NCBI RefSeq assembly: GCF_000179575.2
Contig: NC_015636.1
Location: 697,495-721,494, forward strand
Length of the DNA: 24,000 nucleotides
DNA from: Methanothermococcus okinawensis IH1
GTDB lineage: Archaea; AGJL01; Methanococci; Methanococcales; Methanococcaceae
Reading direction: 5' to 3'
Shown here piece after piece: positions 1-24,000 of the stretch (position 1 is its first letter; each line of letters begins with the position of its first letter). A program made the translations under genes and the position numbers. The notes under the pieces were generated by a model that was not told the DNA's origin, ran no database searches, and saw only the letters and a program-made list of their open reading frames with translations.

Positions 1-863
1 ATTACGGCATTACTCAGGAAGAGGTGAATATGTTAAAGGAATATGTTAAAGAACAGCTTAAAACAGAAATTACCGAAAAAGATGCCATAGTTCTCGTAGC
101 TGATGAAGAACATAAGGTGGATAGGGCATTAAATGCAATCATTGAAAGAGCTCAGGAGGCCATTAAGGGAGTTCCTGAGGAAACTAGAAAAGCACTTGAA
201 AATGGAAATACTTCCTATTTAAGACCGCTTCCTGGCTCTGCAAGAATGTATCCAGAAACCGATATTCCCGCCATAAAAATAAATAAAAAAGTTATCGAAG
301 ACATAAAAAACAATTTACCAGAGATGCCTGAGGAAAAATTGGAAAGATTTATGAAAGAGTATAATTTAAATAAGGATTTGGCAGAAATTATGGTAATGTC
401 TCATCGTGTTGAATTATTCGAAAAATTATGTAAAAAATATAAGGATAAAAACATAAAACCAACGCTAATTGCCACAACATTGGAGGGAACATTGAGAGAA
501 ATTAAAAGGGAAGGCTATAATGTGGATGTTTTAACTGAAAGACACTTTAATGAGGTATTTGATGGATTATCCAATAAAAAAATGTCAAAAGAGGCTGTTA
601 TTGAGGTATTAAAAGGATTTGCAGAATATCCTGAAAAGGATTTGAATGAGATTTTGGAAATAAAAGGTCTTAAATCACTATCAAAAGAAGAGGTTGAGGA
701 TATAATAACCGATATAATAAATCAAAATATAGATATTGTAAAAAGCAAAGGTATGGGTGCTATGGGAATGTTAATGGGTAGATGTATGGCAGTTCTTAGG
801 GGTAAAGCCGATGGAAAATTAATAAACAGCATATTGAAGGATAAACTAACAAATATGCAATAA
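1..863 (+). CDS. gatE: Glu-tRNA(Gln) amidotransferase subunit E, C-terminal ~285 codons (5' end lies upstream of the window)
   Basis: The frame is open from nt 3 (YGITQEEV precedes the ORF-track GTG at 24), so the gene is cut by the window edge. It contains the GatE/GatB-type motif SYLRPLPGSARMYPETDIP and a YqeY/GatB-like C-terminal tail (GMGAMGMLMGRCMAVLRGKADGKLIN). Stop TAA at 861-863 is followed by T-rich tracts. Confidence 0.85.
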   Translation, partial: YGITQEEVNMLKEYVKEQLKTEITEKDAIVLVADEEHKVDRALNAIIERAQEAIKGVPEETRKALENGNTSYLRPLPGSARMYPETDIPAIKINKKVIEDIKNNLPEMPEEKLERFMKEYNLNKDLAEIMVMSHRVELFEKLCKKYKDKNIKPTLIATTLEGTLREIKREGYNVDVLTERHFNEVFDGLSNKKMSKEAVIEVLKGFAEYPEKDLNEILEIKGLKSLSKEEVEDIITDIINQNIDIVKSKGMGAMGMLMGRCMAVLRGKADGKLINSILKDKLTNMQ

Positions 864-1043
864 ATTTTAGTATGTATTTTTATTTATTTTTATATATAAT
901 TTTAATATATATTATATACCTTTTATTTTTCATGTATTTTTATTTATTTTTTAAATTTTCAAATTTTAATTTATAATTCGATATATCAATATCATTATAT
1001 GTTAAATTAGATTAGTTAAATCAGCTAAATTAGGGGATATACT

Positions 1044-2540
1044 ATGAAAGAAATTATAGGATATGTAGTTGGAGAAACCACAACTACTGAGCTCTCATTT
1101 TTATCAGATAAAATTCCAGAAATTGGTAGTTATGTTTCTATAAAATACGACGATGGAATGGAGATTCTTGGAATGATTGAAGGGGTAATGCAAGGATGCC
1201 CTGTTTTTGATGAAGTGCTAAATGTAAAAGACCTATTAAAGTTAAAAAAATTGGAAATTGAGGATTCATTTTACATTATGGGTAAAATAAAGGTTTTAGG
1301 AGATATAAATTACAAGAAAATTCCAAGGGTTCCTCCAAAACCCGGAACTGAGGTATATGCCGCTGATGAAAATACATTAAAAAGGATGTTTTCGAATGGA
1401 GATATTGAGATAGGGAAGCTTATTTCAAAGGATATTCCTGTTAAATTGGATGTAAATAAATTATGTTCAAGGCATTTGGCAATACTTGCAATTACAGGTA
1501 TGGGAAAATCAAATACCGTTGCCGTGCTACTATCGGAGCTCAGTAAATTAAATGCCACCGTGCTTGTGTGTGATGTGCATGGGGAGTATAAAGGCATTGA
1601 ATCCTACGACTCAGATAATAAATTAAAAACTCATATTATAAAACCTAAAATAAATATATACAATATTGGTAGCGGTAGTTTAGCAGATTTAGCTGGCGTA
1701 GATGCCCAAGCTACAAAACAAAGACCTTATATTAGAAAAGCCATTAAAAATGTAAAAAATCGATATAGAGAAAGCGATTTTAACTCTGCGGAGGATTATA
1801 TAAATGAAGTAATAATAGAACTTGAATCATTTATGGAAATCAATAAAAAAGATGCCGATAGCATTCAAACCGCAATTTTTAGATTGGAAGATATGCTACA
1901 ATTTAAAAAGCATTTAATAGCTCTTCATTATAATCCAATAGAGGAGATAAGGGATAACCATATAAATATACTTTCACTTGAAAGCTTGGATGAAAACGAT
2001 ATGGATGTTATTGTTTCATACTTTTCAAAGGAAATATTGAAAGATAGAAAGGACTCTTTAAGAAACGGAGCTCCGAAACCTATATTTATAATATTTGAAG
2101 AGGCTCATCTTATCGTTCCACAGAACAGATATACAAAATCAAAATTATATATATCGAGAATAGCCCGAGAAGGAAGAAAATTTGGGGTTGGAATATGCCT
2201 TGTATCCCAAAGACCAAAGACACTTGACCAGGAGTCATTATCCCAGTGTAATAATTTAATAATTTCAAAATTGATAGAGCCTTCTGACCAAGCACATGTG
2301 CAACATGCCTCTGAAAATCTAAGTGAGGACTTACTTAAACAACTCCCCGGGTTAAATGTTGGTGAGGCTGTAATACTTGGTCCTGCATTAAATATCCCTG
2401 CAATAGTTAAAATAAATAGATTTAATGGAGATTATGGGGGAAAGGATTTAAATATCGTAAATATATGGAATAATAACAGCAATAATTACAACAACGAAAA
2501 ACGGCTCTCATCCGATGATATGTTTGGAGGACTGGATTAA
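1044..2540 (+). CDS. HerA/DUF87-family hexameric ATPase (FtsK-HerA superfamily)
   Basis: RBS-like AGGGGA lies 7 nt upstream of the ATG. The N-terminal region looks like a beta-barrel (HAS-like). Walker A is ILAITGMGKSNT and Walker B is IFIIFEEAHLIVP. The typical HerA segment ISRIAREGRKFGVGICLVSQRP is present. The Asn-rich C-terminal tail is not part of the conserved fold. Confidence 0.8.
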   Translation: MKEIIGYVVGETTTTELSFLSDKIPEIGSYVSIKYDDGMEILGMIEGVMQGCPVFDEVLNVKDLLKLKKLEIEDSFYIMGKIKVLGDINYKKIPRVPPKPGTEVYAADENTLKRMFSNGDIEIGKLISKDIPVKLDVNKLCSRHLAILAITGMGKSNTVAVLLSELSKLNATVLVCDVHGEYKGIESYDSDNKLKTHIIKPKINIYNIGSGSLADLAGVDAQATKQRPYIRKAIKNVKNRYRESDFNSAEDYINEVIIELESFMEINKKDADSIQTAIFRLEDMLQFKKHLIALHYNPIEEIRDNHINILSLESLDENDMDVIVSYFSKEILKDRKDSLRNGAPKPIFIIFEEAHLIVPQNRYTKSKLYISRIAREGRKFGVGICLVSQRPKTLDQESLSQCNNLIISKLIEPSDQAHVQHASENLSEDLLKQLPGLNVGEAVILGPALNIPAIVKINRFNGDYGGKDLNIVNIWNNNSNNYNNEKRLSSDDMFGGLD

Positions 2541-2653
2541 AAAAATGTAAAATAAAAATAATAATAAAAAATATAAAAAATAATCCTATTGATGTACTTT
2601 TTATTAATTAAAAAGCTTTTATTATATGAGCTCCTATATTAATATATAAAGAG

Positions 2654-3484
2654 GTGAGCTCTACGAATTGGGAGATAACATTTGATGGTATAACTTATGA
2701 ATGTATCAACTGTGGATATTGTTGTAGCTGTAAGGATTGGAGAATATATTTATCATATTTTGATACTTTGAAGTTAAAGGAATATGAAGAATATATCGAA
2801 GAAATAAAAGAAGATATTACAGGGTTGGGATTCACTAAACGACTCAAAACAAACAATAGGGGCTGCGTTCTTTTAAACAGTAACAATTTATGCAATATTC
2901 AACTTAAAAAAGGGTATGAATTTAAACCTATTATGTGTAAATTATTTCCATTTAGTTTTATGGTAAAATGGAATGGAGATTTGCTTTTAATAATTAAGCA
3001 TTACTGCAACGGTATTAAAAAAGGAAAATGCGATGATAAAATAATTAAACATGCCATAGAATGTTGTGAAGAATTATATCTTGATGAAATGGATGAAATA
3101 ATAAATATGGGGATGGAACATTCCACAAAAACCAGACTAAACAATAATACATTAATCTCATGGGAAGAGCGAGAGGAGCTCGGAAGATATATTTTTGACA
3201 GTAGTAATTTGGAGGAGCTCTCTGAAAAATGTAAAGAGGTTTTGAATATTGATATATTTAAAGATATGAAAAAATTAAATCATGATAGCGAAATATTTAT
3301 TAAAAATGAAGAAGAGATAATAAGATATTTAGGAGAACTTAATAGAAGAGAACATTTTAGAAAACTAAGTTTTAAAAAAGAGATATACTACCTGTTAAAT
3401 ATTGGAAAAGAATTGAGTAAATATAGTGACATATTCAAAGGTGAAGGGGTTATCGATTCAAAAATCTTAAATTACCATAAATAA
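2654..3484 (+). CDS. YkgJ/UPF0153-family cysteine-cluster (putative Zn/Fe-chelating) protein
   Basis: CxxCxxCC signature (YECINCGYCCSC) plus a second Cys group (RGCVLLNSNNLCNIQ, KPIMCKLFPF), typical of PF03692-type proteins. GTG at 2654 is the only possible start after the in-frame stop at 2627-2629, and it is embedded in AGAGGTGAGC. The C-terminal half has no recognisable domain. Confidence 0.65.
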   Translation: MSSTNWEITFDGITYECINCGYCCSCKDWRIYLSYFDTLKLKEYEEYIEEIKEDITGLGFTKRLKTNNRGCVLLNSNNLCNIQLKKGYEFKPIMCKLFPFSFMVKWNGDLLLIIKHYCNGIKKGKCDDKIIKHAIECCEELYLDEMDEIINMGMEHSTKTRLNNNTLISWEEREELGRYIFDSSNLEELSEKCKEVLNIDIFKDMKKLNHDSEIFIKNEEEIIRYLGELNRREHFRKLSFKKEIYYLLNIGKELSKYSDIFKGEGVIDSKILNYHK

Positions 3485-3502
3485 TATATTTTTAGTGAAA
3501 AT

Positions 3503-4021
3503 ATGATGATGAAAAAAGAAGTAATTATTATACTAATAACTACCATCTTAGTAATATTACCAATTTTATGGGTTATTCAACATAGTGATGCAAATAACTC
3601 AGATTTAAAAAAGTATGATGTATATAGTATAGAAACCAAAAAAATAGATAATAAAAACGTGTCTATTGTATATCAAATCAAAAACCCATCTCCATATGAG
3701 CATCTAAACAATATAGACTCTAAAACCAAAGCTGAAATATGTTATATTACATGGTATATGTTCAATCATTACCATAATATCGATGAAGTTCAAATAATAG
3801 CATATTACAATGATACAGGTAAATTAAAGGAATATTATAAATTTAAAATTGATAGAAATGCTGCTGAAATATCGGGGCTTTTAAATATCTCTGACGCGGA
3901 TATATCATCAAATATGTATTATTATTACCGTAAAATAATTAAACTAGGAGTGCTAAAAGTTAAAGATGTAAATATTCCATATTGGAGGAGAGTTTATGGC
4001 TACAATAACACCAATCAATGA
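3503..4021 (+). CDS. hypothetical protein with N-terminal transmembrane/signal-anchor helix
   Basis: Long ORF with coding-like composition. The N-terminal hydrophobic stretch is VIIILITTILVILPILWVI. Its 3' end overlaps the next gene by 26 nt, which suggests coupling. I recognise no family. Confidence 0.45.
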   Translation: MMMKKEVIIILITTILVILPILWVIQHSDANNSDLKKYDVYSIETKKIDNKNVSIVYQIKNPSPYEHLNNIDSKTKAEICYITWYMFNHYHNIDEVQIIAYYNDTGKLKEYYKFKIDRNAAEISGLLNISDADISSNMYYYYRKIIKLGVLKVKDVNIPYWRRVYGYNNTNQ

Positions 4022-4565
4022 AGAAGAGAAAATGAGTATATTGGCAGGACTTAGAAGTCGTGTTCCTGCTACAAAATTAATAACTTTAAAAAAAATTTCA
4101 GATATTGCAGATATGCACCCTGAATCATTGCAATATATGGATATGGATGATAAAAGAACATTACAGGAAATAATAAGTTCAGTTGAAAGGATAATTAATA
4201 TAGATACGGATGCCGTATTAAAAAGAGAAGCGTTAATCTCTCTTGAAAAAATAAAAAAGGCCTTAGGGGCCAAATTTACCCGAGATTTAATAACTTGCAA
4301 AAATTGTGGTGAAATCATAGATTTGGGATGGGAATACTGTGCAAACTGTGGAGCCAATATCACCAACATGGAATTTGAAGGTATAGAAAGATGTAAAAAT
4401 TGTAATAAACATATTTCTGAAGAATGGACATATTGTGCCCACTGCGGAGTTTTATTAAAGGAAAAAGAAGAAAAAAATTTAGTATGTCCCAATTGTAGAA
4501 GACCTGTTGACCCTTCATGGATGGTTTGCCCATATTGTGGTTACAGGCTCAAAAAGATAAAATAA
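3996..4565 (+). CDS. triple zinc-ribbon domain protein (DZR-like), unknown function
   Basis: Strong RBS GGAGGAG lies 5 nt upstream of ATG 3996. The C-terminal half carries three tandem CxxC-x(9-10)-CxxCG ribbons (CKNCGEIIDLGWEYCANCG, CKNCNKHISEEWTYCAHCG, CPNCRRPVDPSWMVCPYCG). The N-terminal ~100 aa are unrecognised. Confidence 0.65.
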   Translation: MATITPINEEEKMSILAGLRSRVPATKLITLKKISDIADMHPESLQYMDMDDKRTLQEIISSVERIINIDTDAVLKREALISLEKIKKALGAKFTRDLITCKNCGEIIDLGWEYCANCGANITNMEFEGIERCKNCNKHISEEWTYCAHCGVLLKEKEEKNLVCPNCRRPVDPSWMVCPYCGYRLKKIK

Positions 4566-4581
4566 AAAATAAAATATCTTT

Positions 4582-5430
4582 TTAATTTTTTAGAACATTT
4601 GATACAGCACATGATTCTTCTAAAAGTTCAATTTTTAATCCTATTTTTGCAGGAATTACATTAACATTTGTATTTTTTGATATATATTCGCACTCTTTAA
4701 TAGGATTGGTCATTTTCAAACCCATATGATTCATAACTGCAATTTCTGGTTTATTACTCATTTCGTTCAATAAATCTATCAAATCGTTTGAACATAAATG
4801 TCCTTTTATACGCTCATTTTTTTTCCTAACAACATTTGCTATAAGCACCCTTACTCCATTAAAATCTTCAATTAATGACTCCATATATTCCGTATCGCTG
4901 GTATATCCGATATCTCCCTTATTGGTTTTTACCCTTACGCCAATTCCAAAAGGGTCCCCATGTTTTGTCTTTGTTGCCGTTAAATTAACATCTAAAATAT
5001 CCACAGAATCCTTTGGGTTTAACAAATAAACCCTTTCAGGTTTTGATTGGTGATATTTTGATATTGCATTTTCGTAAATCCCAAATCCTTCCAAAACTGA
5101 AATATTGCTTATTACATAACCTCTTTTTTTTATCATACCGTTTGTCATAGCCTCTATAATAATCTCAGCATCGGTATAATGGTCTGGATGGTCATGAGAT
5201 ACAAATAAGGCGTTTGTGCTCCATGGCGATATTTTTAACTCATTCATCCTTACAAGAGCTCCGGGACCTGGGTCTATGTGTAATCTTGTTTTTTCAGTAT
5301 GTATTCTAAAACCGCCCGTTCCTTTATTCTGTGAAATAGTTTCCCATCTTCCTCCACCTGCACCTAAAAAAATTATTTCAACACGCAAAATTACCACATC
5401 CTTAAAATTATTAATAATAAAAAATAGCAT
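4582..5430 (-). CDS. MBL-fold metallo-hydrolase
   Basis: Canonical HxHxDH motif (VSHDHPDHY), a preceding GAGGG/IHIDPGPG region and downstream His/Asp ligands (KHGD, NHMG). The true start is uncertain. It may be an internal TTG/GTG near 5382-5388, just before EIIFLGAGGG, which follows an AAGGATGTGG RBS-like sequence. Confidence 0.75.
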   Translation of the reverse strand: MLFFIINNFKDVVILRVEIIFLGAGGGRWETISQNKGTGGFRIHTEKTRLHIDPGPGALVRMNELKISPWSTNALFVSHDHPDHYTDAEIIIEAMTNGMIKKRGYVISNISVLEGFGIYENAISKYHQSKPERVYLLNPKDSVDILDVNLTATKTKHGDPFGIGVRVKTNKGDIGYTSDTEYMESLIEDFNGVRVLIANVVRKKNERIKGHLCSNDLIDLLNEMSNKPEIAVMNHMGLKMTNPIKECEYISKNTNVNVIPAKIGLKIELLEESCAVSNVLKN

Positions 5431-5554
5431 TTCAAAATATAAATAATATTACATTAAAAATATACTAAATATTAAAATATATTAAAATATAGTAATATTA
5501 AATATAAAAATTATATCATCCTATTAAAATATATAAAATTATAATTTTTTATAT

Positions 5555-6097
5555 CTATCTTGTATCTATAAATTTAACATTTTTATATATGCCATTTACC
5601 TCTACAATTTCATAAGGGGAAGTAATTACTATACTATTATTATTTTGAACAGTGCTGGATACATAAACAGTTATATCCTCATTGCTATTTTTAATTATTT
5701 TTGCTATTTTGATGCTGTAATAATTGGGTTTTTTACCACCATAAACACATATAATGGTTGTATTTTTTCGGTTATCTATATAACTACAATAATATTTTTT
5801 ATCATATTTCCCATATTGCCCATATTCTAATATCGTATAGTTAATAGGTATGGGTAAGTTATTACAATTACTGTATGTATCCTTATTTTTATTATTCTTA
5901 TCCACATTTTTATTACCATTCAGAGCTCTGTTATATCCAAAATTGCTACTATTTTTTATGGTGATATTTTTATTGTTTATAGTTTTATGGATATTTACAT
6001 CATCATTAAAAAAATCTAAACACGACGATAAACTAACCATCAACAATATTGCAAAAATTGAAAATAACAATAATAATTTATTTTTTAAACTTTTCAT
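5555..6097 (-). CDS. hypothetical secreted protein / putative lipoprotein, Asn-rich
   Basis: RBS-like GGGGT lies upstream of the ATG. The N-terminal signal peptide ends in a lipobox-like LSSC (LLLLFSIFAILLMVSLSSC). It lies 9 nt downstream of uppS in the same orientation. I recognise no family. Confidence 0.45.
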   Translation of the reverse strand: MKSLKNKLLLLFSIFAILLMVSLSSCLDFFNDDVNIHKTINNKNITIKNSSNFGYNRALNGNKNVDKNNKNKDTYSNCNNLPIPINYTILEYGQYGKYDKKYYCSYIDNRKNTTIICVYGGKKPNYYSIKIAKIIKNSNEDITVYVSSTVQNNNSIVITSPYEIVEVNGIYKNVKFIDTR

Positions 6098-6106
6098 AAT
6101 ACCCCA

Positions 6107-6907
6107 TTATTTTCCAAACCTTCTTTTTCTTCTTTGATAATCCCTAATTGCCCTTAAAAAATCTATTTTTCTAAAATTAGGCCAGTATGTTTCGCAGAAG
6201 TAAAGTTCAGAATAGCTTGACTGCCATATTAAAAAATTACTTATCCTCTCCTCACCAGAAGTCCTTATTATTAAATCGGGATTTTGATATGGTAAATGAG
6301 CAGTGTACAAATGTTTAGATATGGTTTCCACAGATATATCATTAACATCCATCTCATTATTTTTTATCTTTTGCCCAATCCTTTTTATAGCATCCACGAG
6401 CTCCTGCTGACCCCCATATGCAATTGCAACATTTACATAATAGTTATCATAATCCTTTGTTTTATTTTCTGCATAAGCTATTGCCTCCCTAACATTTTCA
6501 GGTAGGAGCTCTATTCTACCTATAGCCTTTATATGTATTTTATATTTATGAACATTCCTATCTTCTGCAACAGCCCTAAATTCTCTTTCAAATAACTTCA
6601 TCAATGCATCAACTTCTTCCTTTGGTCTATTGAAGTTTTCCAAAGAAAATGAATATAATGTTATTATTTTTATATTTAAATCAACACACCAACCTATAAA
6701 CTCCCTGACCTTTTTTGCACCAATATAATGACCTTTTGTAGATTTTTCACCCATTATTCTTGCCATTCTTCTATTACCATCCATTATAACTCCTATATGT
6801 TTTGGAACCTTTTTTTTATTGATTTCCCCTTCAAGTATCTTTTCATAAAACTTAAATGTCCAGAACCTATTGAAAAAATTGTAAATTTTAAAGAACAAAT
6901 CCACCAC
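6107..6907 (-). CDS. uppS: cis-prenyltransferase: undecaprenyl (tritrans,polycis) diphosphate synthase
   Basis: Hallmark motifs HIGVIMDGNRRMA and IIRTSGEERISNFLIWQSSYSELYF, with the C-terminal RRFG. The ORF-track start is a GTG and the exact start is uncertain by a few codons. Confidence 0.9.
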   Translation of the reverse strand: MVDLFFKIYNFFNRFWTFKFYEKILEGEINKKKVPKHIGVIMDGNRRMARIMGEKSTKGHYIGAKKVREFIGWCVDLNIKIITLYSFSLENFNRPKEEVDALMKLFEREFRAVAEDRNVHKYKIHIKAIGRIELLPENVREAIAYAENKTKDYDNYYVNVAIAYGGQQELVDAIKRIGQKIKNNEMDVNDISVETISKHLYTAHLPYQNPDLIIRTSGEERISNFLIWQSSYSELYFCETYWPNFRKIDFLRAIRDYQRRKRRFGK

Positions 6908-6933
6908 CGAATCTTTAAATCCTTAAATTAAAG

Positions 6934-7746
6934 TTATTTAATAGAGTTTAATATCTCTCCTGTTAAAAATTTTACTGCATTATAATACCTTTTCCAATTC
7001 CCATTCCTGCTTGTGTCTATAAATTTTACATTATTGTTATTTAAAACTACTGCACCACATCCTTCAATACCACATACCAATCCCAAGCATCTAAAAATTA
7101 GATTTCCAGATATTCCATCAGGAGCTATAATAATATTATATCCTTCTTTTAGGTATTCCTCTATCAATATACCTTTGTGTTTTATTACTAAGTTATTGGT
7201 ATGTTTAGCATTATATTTATTACTATTACTGATGTATTTTACAATATTTTCGCCTTCATCTATTGATTTGTCTATCTTTTTACTTCTTCCGTAATCTGAA
7301 AGTCTTCCTGATGATAAAATTCCAATCTTTGGATAAGGGTTGCATTTAGTATTATTATCATTATTATTGATATTATCATTAGTATTATTTATATTATTTA
7401 AAAACTTTATAGCATAATTTATTATATTTATTTTATCATTAAAACCATTTTCATCATCCACCTCATCAATACCAACAGGAGATAATAAAAAATAATTATT
7501 TGTAAATGGATTTTTTAAAATAGATGCTCTATAAAATTTTCCGATATATTTTTTTAAATAAGGTATAACCTCAGAAGAAGACAGTGTGCCCCTTATAGAA
7601 CCCTGAACTTCCCTATTTACAGTCAATGATATGAGCTCCTTTGGGTCATCTACTAATTTAACTTCTATACCTTCATCTATTAATTTATGATATGCCTTTA
7701 AGAGCTCTTCATTGTTGGTCTTCCCAATTCCCATCAAATATACCAT
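6934..7746 (-). CDS. MtxX-like / phosphate-acyltransferase (Pta/PlsX)-fold protein, methanogen-type (methanogenesis-marker-4-like)
   Basis: The C-terminal APDGISGNLIFRCLGLVCGIEGCGAVVL resembles the PTA_PTB family motif (P-D-x-x-x-GN-x-x-x-K/R). Overall size and the N-terminal MGIG segment recall MtxX-family proteins. The assignment is from memory of the family, not from a search. It contains an Asn-rich insertion (NNINNTNDNINNNDNN). Confidence 0.5.
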   Translation of the reverse strand: MVYLMGIGKTNNEELLKAYHKLIDEGIEVKLVDDPKELISLTVNREVQGSIRGTLSSSEVIPYLKKYIGKFYRASILKNPFTNNYFLLSPVGIDEVDDENGFNDKINIINYAIKFLNNINNTNDNINNNDNNTKCNPYPKIGILSSGRLSDYGRSKKIDKSIDEGENIVKYISNSNKYNAKHTNNLVIKHKGILIEEYLKEGYNIIIAPDGISGNLIFRCLGLVCGIEGCGAVVLNNNNVKFIDTSRNGNWKRYYNAVKFLTGEILNSIK

Positions 7747-7829
7747 GATTTCCCTTAATCTATGTTTTAATCTATTTTAATTTTTTTATTTTTATTTTTT
7801 ATTTTAATTTTTAATTATTTTTTATTTTA

Positions 7830-8168
7830 TTATTCTTTTTCATCAATTATATTCAATTTATCCCCTATCTTTAAATCTAAACCACAGCTTTTTATTTCAA
7901 TCATTGCATTTGAATAAACATTTGATTTATAGGTTTTCCATGGTTTTAAATTCTTTACAATACCTACAACGGAATTATCCATTAGAAATACAACATCTAT
8001 TGGGTATTTCATAAAACATGTGTGTATATGGAGCTTTCTTTTATGGTAGTAAAATATAAGCCCCTCGTCATGCCCTATATCTCTAAACATCAAACCAAAC
8101 GCTCGTTTTATGAAATTATCCGCCACATTTAAATGATATATTTTATTATTCAATTTTACCTTTAACAT
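7830..8168 (-). CDS. DUF192 (COG1430) domain protein
   Basis: AGGTGA RBS lies 4 nt upstream of the ATG. The ~110 aa size and motifs (ADNFIKRAFGLMFR, PIDVVFL, AMIEI) are typical of DUF192. Its start overlaps the 3' end of the upstream protease gene by 23 nt. Confidence 0.65.
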   Translation of the reverse strand: MLKVKLNNKIYHLNVADNFIKRAFGLMFRDIGHDEGLIFYYHKRKLHIHTCFMKYPIDVVFLMDNSVVGIVKNLKPWKTYKSNVYSNAMIEIKSCGLDLKIGDKLNIIDEKE

Positions 8169-8991
8169 GATTCACCTTTTTATAAGGGGTAGGTATATAT
8201 TGAACAGAAGGTCTTTGTCCCACAGGTTGTTTGTATAAATCAAATAATTTATACACCTTATCTGGAACTTTTGTATTTACCGATATTCCCAATTCATTTA
8301 ATTTTTTAACAGTTAGCGGATAGTCATGAGTCCATTTACCTGTTGAAAGTGTCTCAGCAAGTTCTTTTGCTCTTTCTTCGGGCATCTTATCCCTTAATAA
8401 ATCAAATACAAATTCTTTAACTTGGTTTATTGCTTTTTTAGAAACATCTGCAAGTATTAATGTTTCATCATCGAGCTCATCTATATATTTAGAATTCACT
8501 GTATTTATAATAGAAGCTGCTGGATATTGCCCTATTTGGGGGTCTACTGGTCCCATCACTGCATTTTTATCCATTATAATTTCATCCACTGCCAATGATA
8601 TCAAACTACCTCCACTCATTGCATAATGTGGTATTATTACCGTTGTTTTTGCCTTATGTTCCTTTAATGCCATAGCTATTTGCTCGCTGGCAAGAACCAA
8701 ACCACCTGGTGTGTGAAGTATTAAATCAATAGGCATATCCTCAGGCGTCATTCTGATTGCCCTTAAAACCTCTTCACTGTCCTCGATATTTATAAATCTA
8801 TATATGGGTATTCCAAAAAGAGCCAGTTGCTCTTGCCTATGTATCATTACTATTACTCGGGTTTTTCGCTCTCTTTCCAATTCTTTAATGCAATTATATC
8901 TCTGCAATAATTTCAATCTAAACATGAATTGAGGATACATAAATAAAAGTAGAAGAAATAACCAAAAAAGACTTGACGGGTCCATTATCAC
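8146..8991 (-). CDS. membrane-anchored ClpP/SppA-fold serine protease (SDH-family proteinase-like)
   Basis: N-terminal TM helix (LFWLFLLLLFMYP). ClpP-fold motifs HTPGGLVLASEQIA and YAMSGGSLISLA (putative nucleophile Ser) are present. The ORF-track start is GTG at 8991, and the ATG at 8985 is an alternative. Confidence 0.65.
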   Translation of the reverse strand: MIMDPSSLFWLFLLLLFMYPQFMFRLKLLQRYNCIKELERERKTRVIVMIHRQEQLALFGIPIYRFINIEDSEEVLRAIRMTPEDMPIDLILHTPGGLVLASEQIAMALKEHKAKTTVIIPHYAMSGGSLISLAVDEIIMDKNAVMGPVDPQIGQYPAASIINTVNSKYIDELDDETLILADVSKKAINQVKEFVFDLLRDKMPEERAKELAETLSTGKWTHDYPLTVKKLNELGISVNTKVPDKVYKLFDLYKQPVGQRPSVQYIPTPYKKVNHVKGKIE

Positions 8992-9300
8992 ACCATATAT
9001 AGTTAATAATTATAATATATAACTCAAAATGTTTATATACATTTATAATCATATTTAAATAATGAAATATAAATATACTTTAAATATATTTATATATTTT
9101 ACATGTTAGATATACTATAAATATATATACTAAATACACACTTGCATATAGCTAATGCAAATATGCATTAGGTATAATTAAATATAAATTAAACCTACAT
9201 TAAATATATATCTTATTATTAAATATTTTATTATTGATTTTTTATTAATATTATTAGAATTATATATTTTACATCGAATATTTTAAAATGAGGTGTTCTA

Positions 9301-10419: not shown

Positions 10420-10509
10420 ATAATATAATACATAAATTAAAATTTAAAATATATAGTAAATTTAAAATTTATAATTAAATAAAATAATAAATAGAATAAT
10501 AAATAAAAG

Positions 10510-13500: not shown

Positions 13501-15600
13501 TCCTGCATTACCTATTGGAAATAACCCATTTACTGGTGGTTTCATTTTTCTTGGAGCAGCTTTTTCAGGTCTTCCCATACGAGCTCCTACATATATGTAT
13601 GCTTTCCTTTTAATCTCAAATGGTGCCAATAGATTTATAAAATGCATGCTGTTTTTTGATTTATTAAATATTTCATCTATATTGTTTATGTTATTATTTT
13701 TTATATTATTTGTATTATTTGTATTATTGTTTGTGTTGTTTATATTATTTGTATTAGCTAAATCTTGATTTTTTTCAACATCAAAACCCAATGAATACAG
13801 TAAAGGATAATATTCGTTTATTACGATAAATTTATTGAATATATTATTGATATTACCTTTGTTATTAGTTTTTTCTTTATTATTAATTTTATCTGTGTCT
13901 GTTATATTCTTATTAGTTATAACTTTATGACAGCACCCTATGAGCTCCAATATTCTTTTAGATTTTATGTGTTTTTCATCCTTTGAATTATAAGGAACCA
14001 CCCATATATCATGCCCTTCTTCTCTTTTAAGATATCCGCTTAAAAGCCAATTTCTTAACAACAATATATCCTCTTTTGACACATCATGCCAATAATATGT
14101 ATATCTTGGATGTAGTGGCGTTCCAGTTTTTATAGCAAATTTTACAGCTTTTTTTGGGTCAGGATTGTTTATATATTCTTTATTGTATTCAATATTTTTT
14201 GAAATAAGTATTTTTTCATACCATTCTTCACACCAACTACTTGGGAGTATTGGATGGTTATTTTCAAGAAAATCTCCAAAATTAATTAAAATATCTCCTA
14301 AAAATAATATTTCCTCTACGGAATCCCTATATTCCAATGCCTTCTCAATAGTATCAATTCTCATTACATTTCCATTTTTTAACTTTACAATAGGAGGTTC
14401 TATACTATCTACTGGAACAACACAGGTTGCCTTTCCAGGTCTTTCAGTTTTTAACTGAGTTCCGACAGCCATGAAGTCATCCACTAAATACATAAGTGCT
14501 GGGTGAAAACCATCTGTTGCAAACCCCGTATTTCTACTTCTGCCATACCTTAACCTGAAACCTCCCTCTTTTGAAGGGTGGGCAAAGACAGGTCTTCCTG
14601 CAATAACTTCACCTATATATTTTGTAATTGCTTCAATTTCAATATCATCATACAATTTACTGTATTCTTCAAACTCTTCTTCATCTATGTCATTATTATC
14701 GTTATCTTCTAAATTATCCTCTTCGTTTTCATTTTCATTTTCTTTTGCTTTTTTTCCCTTTAATTCTTTTAGCCAATCCCATCCTTCAATTCCAAGTTTA
14801 TCGACATGCCTTAAAATTTTTGGAGCTTTTAAAAGCACACCTTCTACCAGTGCAAGCAGAGCTCCCCCTCTTATTTGGTTGGTCTCTACCCTATCCAAAT
14901 CTCTATGTCCGCTAACTTCCACATCGTCCGTAGCTTCTCCTGTAATTTCTATGGGTATATTTTTTACAGCGGTTCTTATTTCATCGGGTTTTGGAGAATA
15001 TTGGAAACTACCAACTTCTGATTGATACAAATCAACTTCTTCCACATACCGTTCTACTTCATCCTCATTGGGCATATATCTATTTAAATTCATATTTTTT
15101 CTGACATAATCACCAACAAGAACAGATAATGCCTGAGCTGTCCCACCTGCACTTCTAATGGGTCCAGCAAAATATATTGCCAAATATTTACTACCATCTC
15201 TATTATTTTTTATTTTAACATGGGCAATTCCTTCAAGAGGAGCTGCTACAATCCCTTCTGTAATTATGGCTAATGCTGTTCTTACAGCCTGTTCTGCTAA
15301 TTCTTCCATAGTTCCTTCATTTCCAAATTTTCCTTCAACTATTTCTTTGGCAATCTCCAATGCAGCAGGTTCTTTACCAAGTTCTGAAACAAGTTCTCTT
15401 ATTCTTCCAGATACCCCTTTTGGACCTACAAGCCCTTCTACCCTATCAGCCATATCTTTTGCAAGAGGCACCTCTACAAAATCTGTGGGGTCATATCCTT
15501 TTTTTCTGCATTCCTCTGCAATATCGTAAATTTTTTTAACATTATCTAAAATATTTTTAAAATAACATTCCATATCCTTAGAGGAGCTCACATGAAACAT
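10510..15600 (-). CDS. polC: DNA polymerase II (PolD) large subunit DP2, intein-containing precursor (1696 aa; 1196 aa after splicing)
   Basis: GGTGA RBS lies 5 nt upstream of ATG 15600. The typical DP2 N-terminus is present ([24 protein letters not shown]). Zn-finger motifs are CPKCG-x8-CPFCG and CKCG-x12-CPKCG. The catalytic motif [14 protein letters not shown] is split by the intein. Confidence 0.95.
11272..12771 (-). mobile_element. 500-aa intein with LAGLIDADG homing-endonuclease domain, in frame within polC (DP2 residues 944-1443)
   Basis: The N-terminal splice junction is KRRN|[10 protein letters not shown], with Cys1 at 12769-12771. Block B is TTPDHPVM. Two LAGLIDADG motifs are present ([13 protein letters not shown] and [13 protein letters not shown]). 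Blocks F/G are [16 protein letters not shown] and NIQIHN|CDGDED, with the terminal Asn at 11272-11274 and a +1 Cys. Removing it restores the contiguous KRRNCDGDED motif. Confidence 0.9.
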
Positions 15601-15713
15601 ATCTTCACCATATTATAAAATTATAAAATTGTAAATTTAGTAAAATAATATATCCATCAAATATATAATATTAAAGTAAGTGTATAAATCTAAATATATA
15701 AATATATATTTGT

Positions 15714-15722
15714 AAAAAATAA
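15714..15722 (-). terminator. oligo-T archaeal terminator after RNase P RNA
   Basis: The minus strand reads ...CATGCC AATTATTTTTTACA, with a T6 run directly after the 3' strand of the P1 helix. Confidence 0.5.
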
Positions 15723-15724
15723 TT

Positions 15725-15964
15725 GGCATGAGGATTATAGCCCGCCTTCTGTAATTTCGACGACATTCGGCTAAGCGCTAAATGCTTGCACCCGTGCAGA
15801 ATGGTATCGTTTCACCGTTTCCTTGAAACTCCTCAATTTACATATCATTGTCATCTGTTTCAAGGCCGTGTCGTTTCTATATACCATTCAATCCTTCTCA
15901 GGATTTTATGCACATAAGGGGTGGGCGGAGCTTCCTCCTAATGGGAGTCGCCAATCCTCTTGCC
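15725..15964 (-). ncRNA. rnpB: RNase P RNA (short, probably type M)
   Basis: A GC-richer island in an AT-rich spacer. The minus strand carries a CR-I-like GAGGAAGCTCCGCCCAC, ACGGTGAAACG, GCTTAGCCGAATG and a CR-V-like ACAGAAGGCGGGCTAT. The terminal P1 helix pairs 5' GGCAAGAGGATT with AATCCTCATGCC 3' (11 of 12 bp). Length is about 240 nt. Confidence 0.78.
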
Positions 15965-16000: not shown

Positions 16001-16099
16001 AAACCAAAGAATAAAAATGAAAAATAAAAATAAAGAATAAAAAATGCCAAATGTTGTAAAAAACACATTATACTCGAAAACTCGAAATTATATAATTAT

Positions 16100-16109
16100 A
16101 AATAAAAAA
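16100..16109 (-). terminator. oligo-T terminator after 5S rRNA
   Basis: The minus strand reads ...GCTGTTAGCC ATTTTTTATTTATAA, with a T6 run immediately 3' of the 5S gene. Confidence 0.55.
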
Positions 16110-16228
16110 TGGCTAACAGCGTCACCCTGTTTCCACCGGAAGGCAGTACTTAGGGTATCGCTGAAGGGCTTAATTTCCGAGATCGGAACGGGATCGGATG
16201 TTACACCTTCGCTATGACCGTTATGCCA
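16110..16228 (-). rRNA. rrf: 5S rRNA
   Basis: The minus strand TGGCATAACGGTCATAGCGAAGG...CCGATCTCGGAAATTAAGCCCTTCAGCGATACC...GGGTGACGCTGTTAGCCA has the conserved 5S loop sequences and complementary termini (GGCATAACGG / GCTGTTAGCC). Length is about 119 nt. Confidence 0.88.
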
Positions 16229-16286
16229 GAAAAAATAAAGCAGGCATAAGCCCCCATATCTTTAAGTGTCCAAGTATCCTAAATAT

Positions 16287-19254
<2,968 letters not shown>

Positions 19255-19348
19255 GATACTTGGATATCACCAGATACAGAGGCTTATACAAACCATCATC
19301 TAAAATCAGGTTTTCAGTTCATAACCCTATGGATTATGAACCTCGCTA

Positions 19349-19421
<73 letters not shown>

Positions 19422-19429
19422 AGTCCTCA

Positions 19430-19460
19430 GCCCGCAACCATTTAGTGCTTAGTAACGACC
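19430..19460 (-). other. 3' strand of the 16S pre-rRNA processing stem (bulge-helix-bulge)
   Basis: RNA GGTCGTTACTAAG-CACT-AAA-TGGTTGCGGGC pairs with 21004-21034. See the partner feature. Confidence 0.8.
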
Positions 19461-19468
19461 TTTTTTTC

Positions 19469-20939
<1,471 letters not shown>

Positions 20940-21003
20940 TATTTGCTAAGCATAGCTTAGCAAACACTCTTTGGAGTCGGTCAAAAAGTTTTGGAATTGA
21001 CTC

Positions 21004-21034
21004 GGTCGTTACTAAGTATCACTTGGTTGCGGGC
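21004..21034 (-). other. 5' strand of the 16S pre-rRNA processing stem (bulge-helix-bulge)
   Basis: RNA GCCCGCAACCA-AGTG-ATA-CTTAGTAACGACC. This gives an 11-bp helix, a 4-bp central helix AGTG/CACT flanked by 3-nt bulges on opposite strands (AAA and ATA), and a 13-bp helix. That is the canonical 3-4-3 BHB substrate of the archaeal splicing endonuclease. Confidence 0.8.
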
Positions 21035-21287
21035 TTACATCAAACCTGAGCTCCTATATTTTTCTATCTTTTCTCAGACTATCATTGACTGCATAATATG
21101 ATGGTGGTTTGGATAATGTATTGTTTTTAGGTTTGGAACAATATTATTTATTATTTTATATATTCATGCTTGAATCACATAATAAAATCACAAAAATAAT
21201 GAAATATAGTCAAATACCAAAATTAAATTAAAAATTATAAAATATTAACTAAAATATAAAAAATGTATGTAGTTATATAAATTAAAA

Positions 21288-22304
21288 TTAACTTCCTTTT
21301 GCAATCTTTTCTAAATTATCAAGTTGTTCAGTAGTTCCAAATGCATAAAGCACATCGTCTGGTAAAATTACAGTATTTGGAGGAGGATTTGTTATTAATT
21401 CATCATTCTTTTTGATACCAATAACATTAACATAATATTCCTGTCTTATTTTAGTTTCAGATAACAGCTTTCCTGCCAATGGAGAATCTTTTTCAATCTT
21501 TATCTTTCTTATCTCTAAATTTTCATCATATTCATATTTAGCTATGGACATAAAGGTAGATACAAAATCAAGAATATCTGGCTTCAATGCAAGTTCGGCC
21601 ATTCTTAATCCACCAATCACATAAGGAGACACTACTCTATCAGCCCCTGCAATTAAAAGTTTATCCATAGCAACCCTTTCATCAGCTTTTGCTACAATAT
21701 ATATATTTGGATTAATTCGTTTTGCAGACAAAGTAATATATACATTGTCTGAATCCCTTGAAACTGTGGAAATTAAACCTTTTGCTTCTTTTATCTTGGC
21801 CTTTAATAGTATATCATCAAGCGTGGCATCCCCAACTATATAATTAAAATTAGGATTATTTTCGAGCTCATTCTCTAAAAGTTCTGCATTGATATCTATA
21901 ACTATATATTTTGCTCCGGATTTTTCTAATTTATTTGCAACAACTTTTCCACTTTTACCATATCCACAGATAATATAATGATTTTTTAAATGTTTTATTC
22001 TTTTCTCCATATCATTCATCTGATTTATTTTTTTAAAATAACCACCTATAAAAAATTCAGCAATACTTCCAAAGGTATAAAATCCTACTCCTACGCCAAA
22101 TAATATATACATGGCTGAAAGGAGTTTCCCCAATTCAGTCTTTGGCACATAATCTCCATAACCTACTGTGGAAATTGTAACTATTGAAAAATACAATGCA
22201 TCTAATGGATTTAATCCTTCTATGTCCATCATAATTATTGAATAAATTATAATTGAAGCCCCTAATACAGCTACGCTTAATTTTATTCTATCGATAACTT
22301 CCAT
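21288..22304 (-). CDS. MthK-type two-TM K+ channel with cytoplasmic RCK (TrkA-N/TrkA-C) domain
   Basis: GTGGT RBS lies 3 nt upstream of the ATG. Two TM helices flank the K+ selectivity filter TVGYGD. The Rossmann motif IICGYGKSG starts an RCK domain. At 338 aa it has the same architecture and size as MthK. Confidence 0.88.
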   Translation of the reverse strand: MEVIDRIKLSVAVLGASIIIYSIIMMDIEGLNPLDALYFSIVTISTVGYGDYVPKTELGKLLSAMYILFGVGVGFYTFGSIAEFFIGGYFKKINQMNDMEKRIKHLKNHYIICGYGKSGKVVANKLEKSGAKYIVIDINAELLENELENNPNFNYIVGDATLDDILLKAKIKEAKGLISTVSRDSDNVYITLSAKRINPNIYIVAKADERVAMDKLLIAGADRVVSPYVIGGLRMAELALKPDILDFVSTFMSIAKYEYDENLEIRKIKIEKDSPLAGKLLSETKIRQEYYVNVIGIKKNDELITNPPPNTVILPDDVLYAFGTTEQLDNLEKIAKGS

Positions 22305-22452
22305 TTTACCACATATTTACATTAAAATATAAATAATATATAGATGGTGTGATAATATAAATGTAAATATAATGCTGTATAATATGTAATTTCGTTTTAC
22401 TCTAAATTTATTTAATTTTTAATTTATTTAACTCTATAATATATCTAAAACC

Positions 22453-24000
22453 ATGAACTATAAAATGAAGATGATAATTATGGAAATAGGCATATTGGAT
22501 ATAAAAGGTTCATTACCTTGTTTTGAAAGTTTTGGAAATCTACCTACAAAGATAATAGATGAAAATAATTTTTCAGAAATTAAAGACTTGAATATGTTAA
22601 TTATACCAGGAGGAAGTTTAGTTGAAAGCGGTTCATTAAACGAAAACTTAAAAAAGCACATATTAGAATATGATGGAATAATAGTTGGAATATGCAGTGG
22701 ATTTCAAATATTATCTGAGAAAATAGATGTTGGCAGAAAAAGTCCAGTCCCCATTATTAAAGAAGGTTTAGGGCTATTAAATGTTGAATTTTCACCACTT
22801 ATTTGCACAGACAGGGTTGAATTTGAATTAAAAAATGAAAGCATATTTGGAAAACCCCATGATGTTGGAAATGGCTTCCACTGCCACACATACGGCAATA
22901 TAAAGATAACAAATAAAAAAACAAAAGAACTATGCACCTCAAAAATCAAAAAATTAAACTACAAAATAGTTGGAGATGTAGATATTATATCTGGTGTTTA
23001 TTATAAAAATATCTTTGGAACAATGGTGCATGGATTTTTAGATAACAAAAATATTAAGGAAAATATATTTAATTCATTGAATATTGATGAAAATGAAAAG
23101 GAGCTCATATTAAAAAAAAATAATGATATAACCCATAGATTAAAAGCTAAATCCATAATAAATACTAACGCCAATAATACTAATGATACCAATACCACCA
23201 ATATTAATAATAGGAGCTCCTTCCAATCACCTTTAAAAGAAAGTGATGAAAAAAAAGGATTAATTTTATTAGCAACAGGCTCTGAAAGTGGAAAAACCTT
23301 TTTAACAACAAGTATAGTTTCAAAATTAGATAAAAAAACTTTTGTTGCAAAAATAGGTCCTGATGTAAGGGATATTGTTCCATCACTATATATGTTAAGA
23401 GAACCTATGTTAAAATACAGCAGTATAAAAATCGCAGATAGGGGTTGGTGTGATGCTGAGGAGTTTCTAAAATTTGTTAAAGATTCAGATTATACTTATT
23501 ATATCATTGAAGGAGTAATGGGTGCATTTACAGGAGCATTAAATAAAAAAAATTACAGTGGAGCCGAAATATCGAAAACATTGAAATTCCCAGTATATAT
23601 AGTAGCATCATGTAGTAAAAGCGGTATTGAAGGAGCATTTGTAGAGAGTTTTGGATATTATACCTTGTTAAAGGAAATGGGGGTTAATGTTAAGGGAATA
23701 ATATTAAATAAGGTATATAATTTTGAAGTATTTGAAAAGGTAAAAAAAATAGGAAATGAAATTGGATTATCTATATTAGGAGTTGGAAAGGCAAATATGA
23801 ATAAAAGAGGTTTAATGCCAGAGGTTGAAATAGATTATGAAAATTTCTGTAAAAATGCCATGAATATAGACATAGGGCTCGAAATTCCGAAACTTGAAAC
23901 CATCAATAAAAGATACGATAATACTAATAAAAATAATAATAAAAATAATTATAAAGACTTTGAATATTATTTAAAAAAATGGGTTAATCATTTAAAATAA
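22453..24000 (+). CDS. CbiA/CobB-family a,c-diamide-synthase-like amidotransferase with reversed domain order (N-terminal CobBQ-type GATase, C-terminal DTBS/CobB-type ATPase)
   Basis: The N-terminal half has IIPGG, the nucleophile motif GICSGFQIL (Cys81, nt 22693-22695) and [10 protein letters not shown] (CobQ-like GTYxHGxFDN). After an Asn/Thr-rich linker the C-terminal half has the P-loop [10 protein letters not shown] (nt 23278-23298), KIGPDVRD (compare KVGPDYID), [11 protein letters not shown] (compare EGVMGLYDG) and KGIILNKV (compare GVILNRV). The stop is at 23998-24000. The true start may be one of the Mets at residues 5, 7 or 10, and there is no obvious RBS. Confidence 0.6.

Follow-up and report, generated by a model that had tools for sequence, protein, structure and literature searches.

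The palindromic hexamer GAGCTC is strongly over-represented in a 24-kb stretch of DNA from Methanothermococcus okinawensis IH1 (contig NC_015636.1, positions 697,495 to 721,494; hereafter the window) and in loci of some of its relatives. Our analysis covered this ~24 kb of the source genome together with syntenic or neighbouring loci of relatives. The excess acts at the level of the DNA and is specific for the whole hexamer. It accumulated independently in separate lineages by point substitutions, some of which cost amino acids, and the sites are retained better than control hexamers. We tentatively interpret GAGCTC as an archaeal counterpart of the highly iterated palindromes (HIPs) of Cyanobacteria.

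Over-representation of GAGCTC in the window

An exact count gave 30 GAGCTC sites, 29 in non-RNA DNA and one in the 23S rRNA gene. The non-rRNA part of the window comprises 18.9 kb with 29% G+C, and its 29 sites correspond to a density of ~1,530 per Mb. These figures agree with a preliminary description of the sequence, which had counted 30 sites and estimated the G+C content at about 30%; all coordinates listed there were right but one, a typing error that placed at 9828 a site starting at 9818. In 100 dinucleotide-preserving shuffles of the whole window, the mean count was 1.69 (standard deviation 1.39, maximum 6). Per strand of the non-rRNA DNA, the 29 sites compare with 1.1 expected from an order-0 model, 1.9 from an order-2 model and 5.9 from an order-3 model, the high-order expectations being inflated by the GAGCTC sites themselves. 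The observed/expected ratio (O/E) is 26 with the order-0 model and 4.9 with the order-3 model, and the excess first proposed is confirmed. GAGCTC was the top hexamer by z-score in both rankings computed (order 0 and order 3), and each of its 18 one-substitution variants is present in only 0-7 copies in the window.

Enrichment was highest in the intergenic compartment (17.8% G+C; 2 sites versus 0.02 expected, ~100-fold), followed by the coding sequences (27 sites versus 1.12 expected), and was not found in the RNA genes (1 site versus 1.47 expected). Sites are present at ~1.5 per kb across the window, on either side of the rRNA operon. An internal control in the preliminary description, based on the base following the 5-mer GAGCT outside RNA genes, was reproduced for C (29 times) and T (twice, at 8031 and 14823); the following base is G twice (15135 and 15240) where one case had been reported, and A once (7122) where none had. 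The estimate that about a third of the flanks extend the palindrome matches our count of 19 of 60 half-sites.

Several simple causes were ruled out. Chance and base composition do not account for the excess given the shuffles and Markov models. Repeats or mobile elements carrying GAGCTC were rejected, as the sites lie within conserved single-copy genes and the flanks of unshared sites diverge at the background rate. A degenerate specificity (GRGCYC or GWGCWC) was rejected since GGGCTC/GAGCCC and GTGCTC/GAGCAC are not enriched; in the same check, GGGCCC was abundant solely in rRNA. The excess is also not a by-product of relaxed AGCT avoidance, as AGCT outside GAGCTC is still below expectation in lineages A-D defined below (O/E 0.4-0.8).

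The excess acts on DNA and not through coding

Within the window, 17 sites are read as GAG-CTC (Glu-Leu), seven lie in the xGA-GCT-Cxx frame, three in the xxG-AGC-TCx frame, two are intergenic and one is in rRNA, exactly as tallied in the preliminary description. Genes of either strand carry sites. A coding artefact could be suspected because 17 of the 27 coding sites are in-frame Glu-Leu; its source might be the amino acid composition, a changed tRNA pool, or a preference for GAG-CTC in codon pairing or codon usage. Moreover, GAGCTC sites make up 17 of 50 Glu-Leu dipeptides in the window, as well as 17 of its 30 CTC codons. We compared the counts with synonymous-codon shuffles that keep protein sequence and codon usage, using the window pooled with its close relatives (clade A). 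Frames 0, 1 and 2 contained 53, 19 and 6 sites versus 2.8, 2.1 and 0.6 in the shuffles. All three frames are thus enriched 9- to 19-fold, and frames 1 and 2 by 9- to 10-fold.

In clade A, GAGCTC is used at 36% of the Glu-Leu positions that could encode it synonymously and at 10% of the corresponding x-Ser-Ser positions. For [R/G]-Ala-[L/P/H/Q/R] positions, the share is 73% in lineage A, 67% in B and 80% in C, although no codon boundary coincides with the motif in that frame. In unenriched lineages, GAGCTC is used at 0-2% of both Glu-Leu and [R/G]-Ala-[L/P/H/Q/R] positions. Since all frames and intergenic DNA are enriched, a codon-pair or tRNA explanation is excluded, and sites in genes of both strands, together with the amino acids replaced to make sites (see below), also speak against an effect of coding. 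The coding artefact is refuted by the frame and intergenic tests, and we give it practically no credence. The earlier claims that the excess is independent of frame and strand, and neither driven by coding nor confined to Glu-Leu, therefore hold.

Selection at the RNA level was considered as well, namely that self-complementary GAGCUC pairs form GC-rich stems stabilising AT-rich transcripts in a thermophile. The motif is indeed self-complementary and GC-rich in a genome of 29% G+C, and its extension GGAGCUCC in lineage B would make such stems stronger. Nevertheless, close pairs of sites are not in excess (5 gaps below 100 nt versus ~4 expected; coefficient of variation (CV) ~0.9), sites are found in non-transcribed or leader intergenic DNA, and the structural RNAs themselves are not enriched. 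We consider this explanation very improbable.

GAGCTC accumulated independently in separate lineages

Loci of relatives were collected via homologues of the DNA polymerase PolD and of the AAA ATPase encoded in the window; a metagenome scan yielded only two short additional Methanothermococcus loci. GAGCTC counts by lineage or species (loci in brackets) were as follows.

Lineage A (the window, L001, L002, L014, L031): 100 sites in 62 kb, 4.2 expected
Lineage B (L025, L015): 25 sites in 18 kb, 1.1 expected
Lineage C (L028, L030): 28 sites in 29 kb, 2.5 expected
Lineage D (L024, GCA_054002535.1): 1 site in 15.7 kb, 1.2 expected
Lineage E (L026/L027, L006): 0 sites in 35.6 kb, 2.2 expected
Lineage F (L029): 0 sites in 24 kb, 1.6 expected
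Lineage G (L003-L007): 1 site
Methanococcus maripaludis C5 (L032): 1 site in 18.5 kb, 1.4 expected
Methanotorris igneus (L033): 0 sites in 24.8 kb, 2.0 expected

GAGCTC is the top hexamer in A, in B and in C and is unremarkable in the others; no excess was found in the loci of D, of three other Methanothermococcus lineages (E, F and G), of M. maripaludis or of Methanotorris igneus. Lineage B in effect uses an octamer, GGAGCTCC, 39 of its 50 half-sites having C at position +1. A pyrimidine at +1 is mildly preferred in lineages A and C, and flanks beyond +1 are weakly informative. The sites of the window, with the states found in other lineages, are listed here by position, gene and strand.

148-153, gatB/gatE-type C-terminal open reading frame (ORF) (+): frame xGA-GCT-C, Arg-Ala-Gln; common to L001
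1089-1094, herA (+): Glu-Leu; present in the window, L001 and L002; GAATTA in lineage B
1536-1541, herA (+): Glu-Leu; window lineage only; GAGTTA in L001, GAATTA in L002 and B
2068-2073, herA (+): within GGAGCTCC; frame 1, Gly-Ala-Pro
2628-2633, intergenic: upstream of the CxxCxxCC-domain ORF
2656-2661, 5' end of the CxxCxxCC ORF (+): frame 2, Val-Ser-Ser; GGGACT in L001
3176-3181, CxxCxxCC ORF (+): Glu-Leu; GAGCTT in L001
3215-3220, CxxCxxCC ORF (+): Glu-Leu; GAACTC in L001
5256-5261, MBL-fold hydrolase gene (-): frame 1, Gly-Ala-Leu; common to lineages A and B
5923-5928, 180-aa hypothetical ORF (-): frame 1, Arg-Ala-Leu
6398-6403, undecaprenyl-diphosphate synthase gene (-): Glu-Leu; L001 and B keep GAAATT (Glu-Ile), so that the gain changed an amino acid
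6506-6511, undecaprenyl-diphosphate synthase gene (-): Glu-Leu; shared in A; GATTTA in B
7633-7638, mtxX/Mmp4 (-): Glu-Leu; AAAATT (Lys-Ile) in D
7702-7707, mtxX/Mmp4 (-): Glu-Leu; window lineage only; GAAGTT, GAAATT or GAACTT in others
8473-8478, SDH-type ClpP-like protease gene (-): Glu-Leu; in all of clade A; GAATTA in D, GAATTG in B and E
9818-9823, AAA (PRS2) ATPase gene (+): frame 1, Arg-Ala-Leu; GGGCTC in D and G
9868-9873, AAA ATPase gene (+): Glu-Leu
9964-9969, AAA ATPase gene (+): Glu-Leu
10192-10197, AAA ATPase gene (+): Glu-Leu; site in A and B; GAACTC or GAACTG in D, E and G
12313-12318, PolD DP2 gene (-), inside the intein: Glu-Leu
12523-12528, PolD DP2 gene (-), inside the intein: Glu-Leu
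13581-13586, PolD DP2 gene (-): frame 1, Gly-Ala-Arg; GTGCCC in D
13942-13947, PolD DP2 gene (-): Glu-Leu; window lineage only
14859-14864, PolD DP2 gene (-): frame 1, Gly-Ala-Leu; site in A, B and C; GGGCAT in D and F
15584-15589, PolD DP2 gene (-): frame 2, Val-Ser-Ser; replacement of Lys by Ser; AAAATC (Val-Lys-Ser) in D and E
17592-17597, inside 23S rRNA: not counted in the excess
21048-21053, intergenic: ~110 bp upstream of 16S rRNA (operon on the - strand)
21864-21869, TrkA-type K+ channel gene (-): Glu-Leu
23101-23106, cobyrinic-acid a,c-diamide synthase-like gene (+): Glu-Leu
23214-23219, cobyrinic-acid a,c-diamide synthase-like gene (+): within GGAGCTCC; frame 2, Arg-Ser-Ser

Clade A clearly has D as its sister in the AAA ATPase, SDH-type protease, DUF192 and mtxX genes, with B more distant; across these genes, nucleotide identity is 82-84% between D and A and 88-95% within A. 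At columns with GAGCTC in all clade A members, D has GAATTA, GAACTT, GAACTG, GGGCTC, AAAATC or GGGCAT, and these states match those of B, C, E, F and G. Since D carries such outgroup-like states, clade A gained these sites after its split from D. Sites of B and C are mostly at columns other than those of A. GAGCTC therefore accumulated independently at least twice (in A and in B) within Methanococcales, and probably a third time in lineage C.

Some gains replaced amino acids. In the AAA ATPase, lineages B and C both replaced Gly-Pro-Pro by Gly-Ala-Pro, in parallel, within the Walker A loop (alignment column 538; L025, L015, L028 and L030), where the context was Gly-Pro-Pro-Gly-Thr-Gly-Lys-Thr. 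This change apparently made GGAGCTCC, the DNA motif overriding a conserved protein motif. Sites in PolD were likewise made by the replacements Gly-Asn-Pro to Gly-Ala-Pro (B and C), Gly-Thr-Pro to Gly-Ala-Pro/His (L002, L031, B and C), Val-Lys-Ser to Val-Ser-Ser (clade A) and Glu-Ile-Pro to Arg-Ala-Pro (L002 only).

The PolD DP2 gene is a recombination mosaic among the window, L001, L002, L024, L025 and L031. L024, an outgroup for the neighbouring genes, shares 89.8% identity with the PolD of L002, a closeness equal to that among clade A members. Identity between L031 and L002 is 99.7% in one block of 300 nt but 85.7% in a second one, and identity between lineages A and B is 88-92% in the intein region and ~77% elsewhere in the gene. 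This mosaic structure shows that homologous exchange occurs between these lineages. That the same hexamer arose repeatedly argues for a transferable specificity module, for example a restriction-modification-type enzyme.

Gain and retention of sites

For the gain test, the D state served as a proxy for the ancestor, a column was scored as converted if GAGCTC was present in at least one clade A genome, and 63 composition-matched hexamers served as controls.

Ancestral state one substitution away: 5 of 11 columns converted, control 4.0%, 11-fold
Ancestral state two substitutions away: 9 of 115 columns converted, control 0.23%, 34-fold
Ancestral state three substitutions away: 7 of 743 columns converted, control 0.023%, 41-fold

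Accordingly, 16 of 21 clade A gains started from states two or three substitutions away. The one-step conversions were at position 3 (three cases) and at positions 2 and 6, and about 6 of 22 clade A gains were non-synonymous. At unshared sites, divergence was 0.30 in the hexamer and 0.14-0.18, the background level, in the flanks. As only the hexamer is unusually divergent, the sites were made by local point substitutions and not by imported, conversion or insertion tracts.

The whole hexamer, and not its neighbours, is favoured. All nine classes of one-off variants are at or below expectation, and none is elevated in any enriched lineage. Among Glu-Leu codon pairs, states one or two substitutions short of GAGCTC are depleted in comparison with D: GAA-CTN falls from 45% in D to 23% in A and GAG-TTR from 15% to 7%, and in lineage B the pairs are almost bimodal (29 GAATTA and 12 GAGCTC of 53).

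These patterns bear on a purely mutational origin, proposed in the preliminary description, in which a 5-methylcytosine methyltransferase for GAGCTC coupled to a Vsr/Mig-type T:G mismatch enzyme would act as a ratchet from GAGTTC/GAACTC to GAGCTC, the motif being a functionless by-product. Such a ratchet has precedents in Dcm/Vsr and CCWGG in Escherichia coli and in M.MthTI/Mig.MthI of an archaeal plasmid, and a mobile methyltransferase/repair gene pair would suit the patchy, repeated origin. The central G/C step is the commonest single difference between site and non-site, GAACTC is the most frequent alternative state, and enrichment rises as constraint falls (intergenic > coding > RNA genes), as for a mutational process. 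However, the gains include transversions and GC to AT changes (GGGCTC, GAGCTA, GTGCCC and AAAATC to GAGCTC) that T:G repair cannot drive, and states two and three substitutions away convert at 34 and 41 times the control rate. GAGTTC/GAACTC is not depleted in clade A (22 observed versus 16.6 expected). Position-6 variants are nearly absent from Glu-Leu pairs (GAGCTT/A/G 2 versus GAGCTC 53), and position 6 is guarded to the same degree as position 3, though central C/T repair would not protect position 6; moreover, the ~25-fold effect is far above the modest CCWGG excess in E. coli. Because neither changes confined to the central C/T nor a deficit of GAGTTC/GAACTC was seen, T:G repair cannot be the sole cause. 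We judge it unlikely as the explanation of the excess, although the mechanism may contribute.

Retention of GAGCTC between genomes was 0.57-0.89, compared with 0.30-0.54 for hexamers of the same pattern of strong and weak bases, and was above the control with P<0.03 in five of six directed genome pairs. A strict three-taxon test in clade A gave a weaker signal, with 12 apparent losses among 48 (25%) versus 34 of 85 (40%) for the controls.

Better-than-control retention would also be expected if GAGCTC were the binding site of an abundant chromosomal protein and its high density were favoured in cis by a host role in nucleoid organisation, segregation, condensin loading, or replication and repair, without methylation or DNA exchange. 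A palindrome of 6-8 bp suits a dimeric DNA-binding protein, the specificity covers the whole site, the host bears the amino acid cost, and sites are present throughout the window at the density given above, on both sides of the rRNA operon. Against this, the same specificity would be needed two or three times, yet the sister lineage D does without it; the spacing of sites is random and not regular; no candidate protein was found in the loci; and the known archaeal chromatin proteins (histones and Alba) are not hexamer-specific. This is the main rival to the explanation that we favour, but we regard it as rather improbable.

A sequence-specific reader as the favoured explanation

The process required by these observations acts on DNA, is present in one lineage but not in its sister, and overrides codon bias and some amino acid constraint. 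Like type II restriction-modification enzymes, it also distinguishes the intact hexamer from each of its one-off neighbours. The preliminary description had offered as its second hypothesis a selected or driven site read as a whole by a DNA-binding factor; this remains a hypothesis, but it fits all the patterns found.

The explanation that we favour, tentatively and at somewhat less than even confidence, is that GAGCTC is the archaeal counterpart of the cyanobacterial HIPs, a whole-site tag for a restriction-modification-type reader by which tagged self DNA is favoured. The identity of the reader, its methylation of the site and the nature of the benefit are what we infer beyond the observations. 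A sequence-specific DNA enzyme of the restriction-modification type would recognise the short palindromic tag as a whole; the likeliest candidate is a solitary GAGCTC methyltransferase or a partner protein reading GAGCTC. Separate Methanococcales lineages may have acquired this reader horizontally. With the reader present, point mutations that complete a site would be preferentially fixed and existing sites preserved, a whole-site fixation bias. The motif would then spread to wherever a site costs least (Glu-Leu, [R/G]-Ala-x, x-Ser-Ser and intergenic DNA) up to ~1.5 sites per kb; one site is found per 400-1,000 bp. As reported in recent work on methylated HIP1, the likeliest advantage would be that self DNA carrying the tagged (methylated) site is preferentially taken up, recombined or repaired. 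Such a benefit is plausible. The mosaic PolD shows that these lineages exchange DNA.

Several points weigh against this reading. The genome-wide extent of the excess is extrapolated from the window and the loci of relatives. The window and the fetched loci contained no gene for a methyltransferase, a SacI-like endonuclease, a Vsr/Mig enzyme or competence (whole genomes were not scanned). The three-taxon test gave only 2 clear gains, and none of 27 shared one-off states was converted. Given these few gains, the absence of conversions and the 12 losses, sites may have accumulated largely in an early burst and then been maintained, instead of still accruing. Site spacing is indistinguishable from random (CV 0.87-1.3) and so gives no hint that even coverage is selected for. 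Furthermore, the uptake sequences of bacteria differ from GAGCTC in their greater length, their asymmetry and the frequent occurrence of their one-off variants.

In a bolder form of the favoured explanation, GAGCTC (GGAGCTCC in one lineage) would be the first archaeal self-recognition or uptake/recombination tag, a methylated palindrome whose transferable reader/methyltransferase module rewrites genomes of vent methanogens quickly by molecular drive, including conserved protein motifs like the Walker A loop. We find this version doubtful. If true, it would be a portable counterpart of cyanobacterial HIP1, with a module spreading among co-occurring vent methanogens. Our literature search turned up no description of GAGCTC enrichment, and none of a HIP or an uptake sequence in Archaea.

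Over-represented palindromes contradict the usual rule of restriction avoidance. Cyanobacterial HIP1 is the only well-studied such case and has been without a settled explanation for 30 years. The system described here offers a recent and repeated origin, close relatives free of the motif, a commercial enzyme for GAGCTC (SacI) and two cultured type strains (M. jasoni Ax23, for which Nanopore data of >5,000x coverage exist (PMC12955612), and M. okinawensis IH1). With recent origins, motif-free relatives and cultured strains, comparative gene content should reveal the responsible gene or genes. The case also illustrates that codon usage, and even conserved amino acids, can give way across a genome to a DNA signal of 6 bp. 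This bears on models of how codons and proteins evolve, on the phylogenetics of these archaea and on the design of genetic tools for vent methanogens. Surveys of archaeal restriction-modification systems list AGCT methyltransferases but not GAGCTC ones (PMC11033074).

Gene content of the window and its relatives

The genes of the window are ordinary archaeal housekeeping genes. They encode a gatB/E C-terminus, herA, a CxxCxxCC protein, a zinc-ribbon protein, an MBL-fold hydrolase, undecaprenyl-diphosphate synthase, mtxX, a DUF192 protein, an SDH-type protease, a PRS2-type AAA ATPase, PolD DP2 with an intein, a TrkA-type channel and a CobB/CfbB-like amidotransferase. The RNA genes are an rRNA operon on the - strand and the RNase P RNA.

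9301-10419, + strand: AAA (PRS2) ATPase
10510-15600, - strand: PolD DP2 with intein
15726-15963, - strand: archaeal RNase P RNA gene, with the PolD start directly on one side and the 5S end of the rRNA operon on the other
16278-19255, - strand: 23S rRNA
19471-20939, - strand: 16S rRNA
same rRNA operon, - strand: tRNA-Ala and 5S rRNA

The nearest genomes to the window belong to Methanothermococcus, in the M. okinawensis / M. jasoni group, consistent with the correct earlier assignment of the host to Methanococcales. The window and M. jasoni Ax23 (L002) share 84.5% identity across 15 kb; for M. jasoni Ax23T, M. okinawensis IH1 is the closest described species, with an average nucleotide identity of 85% (PMC12955612). 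In L002, a gene for a ClC-type membrane channel is inserted between gatB/E and herA (725-1912). This 1.3-kb insertion contains no GAGCTC site, and neither the window nor L001 has it.

The lineage C loci (L028 and L030) show Methanococcus-like synteny, and no named relative with >80% identity was found for their DP2 and AAA proteins. Their PolD DP2 proteins (L028 549-3959 and L030 550-5412) are 100% identical in the exteins, and a LAGLIDADG intein is present in one DP2 (1620 aa) and not in the other (1136 aa). The pair is an intein presence/absence polymorphism within one lineage.

Other palindromes in these genomes

Several palindromic tetramers are very strongly avoided in the window outside the rRNA operon (1-15900 and 21000-24000), namely GATC (O/E 0.00), ACGT (0.04), CTAG (0.06) and GTAC (0.06). 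Hexamers of the form GTNNAC (GTTAAC, GTATAC, GTCGAC and GTGCAC) have no copies in the same regions. The avoided words vary by lineage; GGCC, for example, has an O/E of 1.0 in the window and 0.1 in L024. This avoidance pattern is consistent with many restriction-modification systems.

AGCT is nearly absent from lineages E (4 versus 57 expected in L026, 2 versus 42 in L006) and F (1 versus 69 in L029), which points to long-standing AluI-type restriction pressure; in lineages A-D the deficit of AGCT, leaving GAGCTC aside, is mild. In lineage E (L026 and L006), GGCC is ~4-fold above expectation, and the top palindromic hexamers are CCATGG (18 versus 2.2 expected) and AGGCCT (14 versus 2.2), ~2-fold by the order-3 model; these may be a weak alternate palindrome signal or an effect of codon usage. 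In the loci of the unenriched lineages, the search for alternative HIPs gave no more than modest signals. GGGCCC was rejected as a second over-represented palindrome of the window (7 versus 0.65 expected; copies at 9758 and 16900-20155), as six of the seven copies lie in rRNA and tRNA genes.

Comparison with known systems

Palindrome avoidance of the type described by Gelfand and Koonin is strong for other palindromes in these genomes, and GAGCTC shows the opposite. Its over-representation rules out an active SacI-type endonuclease that attacks unprotected self DNA.

Very-short-patch repair by Dcm/Vsr acts at CCWGG in E. coli, and M.MthTI/Mig.MthI of the Methanothermobacter plasmid pFV1 acts at GGCC. 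In both, the palindrome of the methyltransferase is over-represented and not avoided, and a mobile gene pair of this kind would fit the patchy distribution of GAGCTC. In the Dcm/Vsr model, however, sites are gained only by T to C changes at the methylated cytosine and the T-variant is depleted; GAGCTC shows neither, and the effect is far larger.

The uptake signal sequences (USS) of Pasteurellaceae and DNA uptake sequences (DUS) of Neisseriaceae resemble GAGCTC in having ~1 site per kb, in lying within genes at low-cost positions (Glu-Leu and Gly-Ala-Pro are preferred by GAGCTC) and in having lineage dialects. They are also built up by point mutation, in their case under transmission bias. USS and DUS are nevertheless asymmetric and 9-12 bp long, whereas the palindrome GAGCTC has 6 bp, or 8 bp in lineage B. 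USS are accompanied by many one-off variants and lie at more regular intervals than expected by chance; GAGCTC has neither property. Methanococcus maripaludis, a relative of these hosts, is naturally transformable.

The best match for the GAGCTC pattern is the HIP phenomenon of Cyanobacteria, with HIP1 (GCGATCGC) and the alternate HIPs GGCGCC, GCsGC and rCCGGy (Elhai 2015, PMC4390886; Xu et al. 2018, PMC5861425). Like GAGCTC (~1,500 per Mb, O/E ~25), HIPs are hyper-abundant GC-rich palindromes (300-2,700 per Mb, O/E 15-300) that are present in all coding frames and in intergenic DNA and are conserved above control oligomers. Their presence or absence and their palindromic extensions vary by lineage, as does GGAGCTCC in lineage B (HIP1 extensions, PMC4390886), and the alternate HIPs are similar in size, being hexamers or pentamers. 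HIP1 is under selection (PMC5861425), the alternate HIPs co-occur with cognate, often orphan, methyltransferases (PMC4390886), and methylated HIP1 raises natural transformation more than 100-fold (bioRxiv 10.1101/2024.09.10.611283) and has been linked to both natural transformation and recombination (bioRxiv 10.1101/2024.09.10.611283 and 10.64898/2026.06.24.733823). The two systems differ in sequence and in host, HIP1 belonging to Cyanobacteria and GAGCTC to archaeal Methanothermococcus. HIPs are defined by cognate methyltransferases, of which none was seen in the GAGCTC loci fetched. One-off variants of HIP1 are common, whereas those of GAGCTC are not elevated, and HIP1 is quasi-periodic at a scale of 18-94 kb (Xu et al. 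2018), whereas local gaps between GAGCTC sites are random-like within the 24-kb window. Unlike the HIPs, GAGCTC arose at least twice, and probably three times, in one order over a short time.

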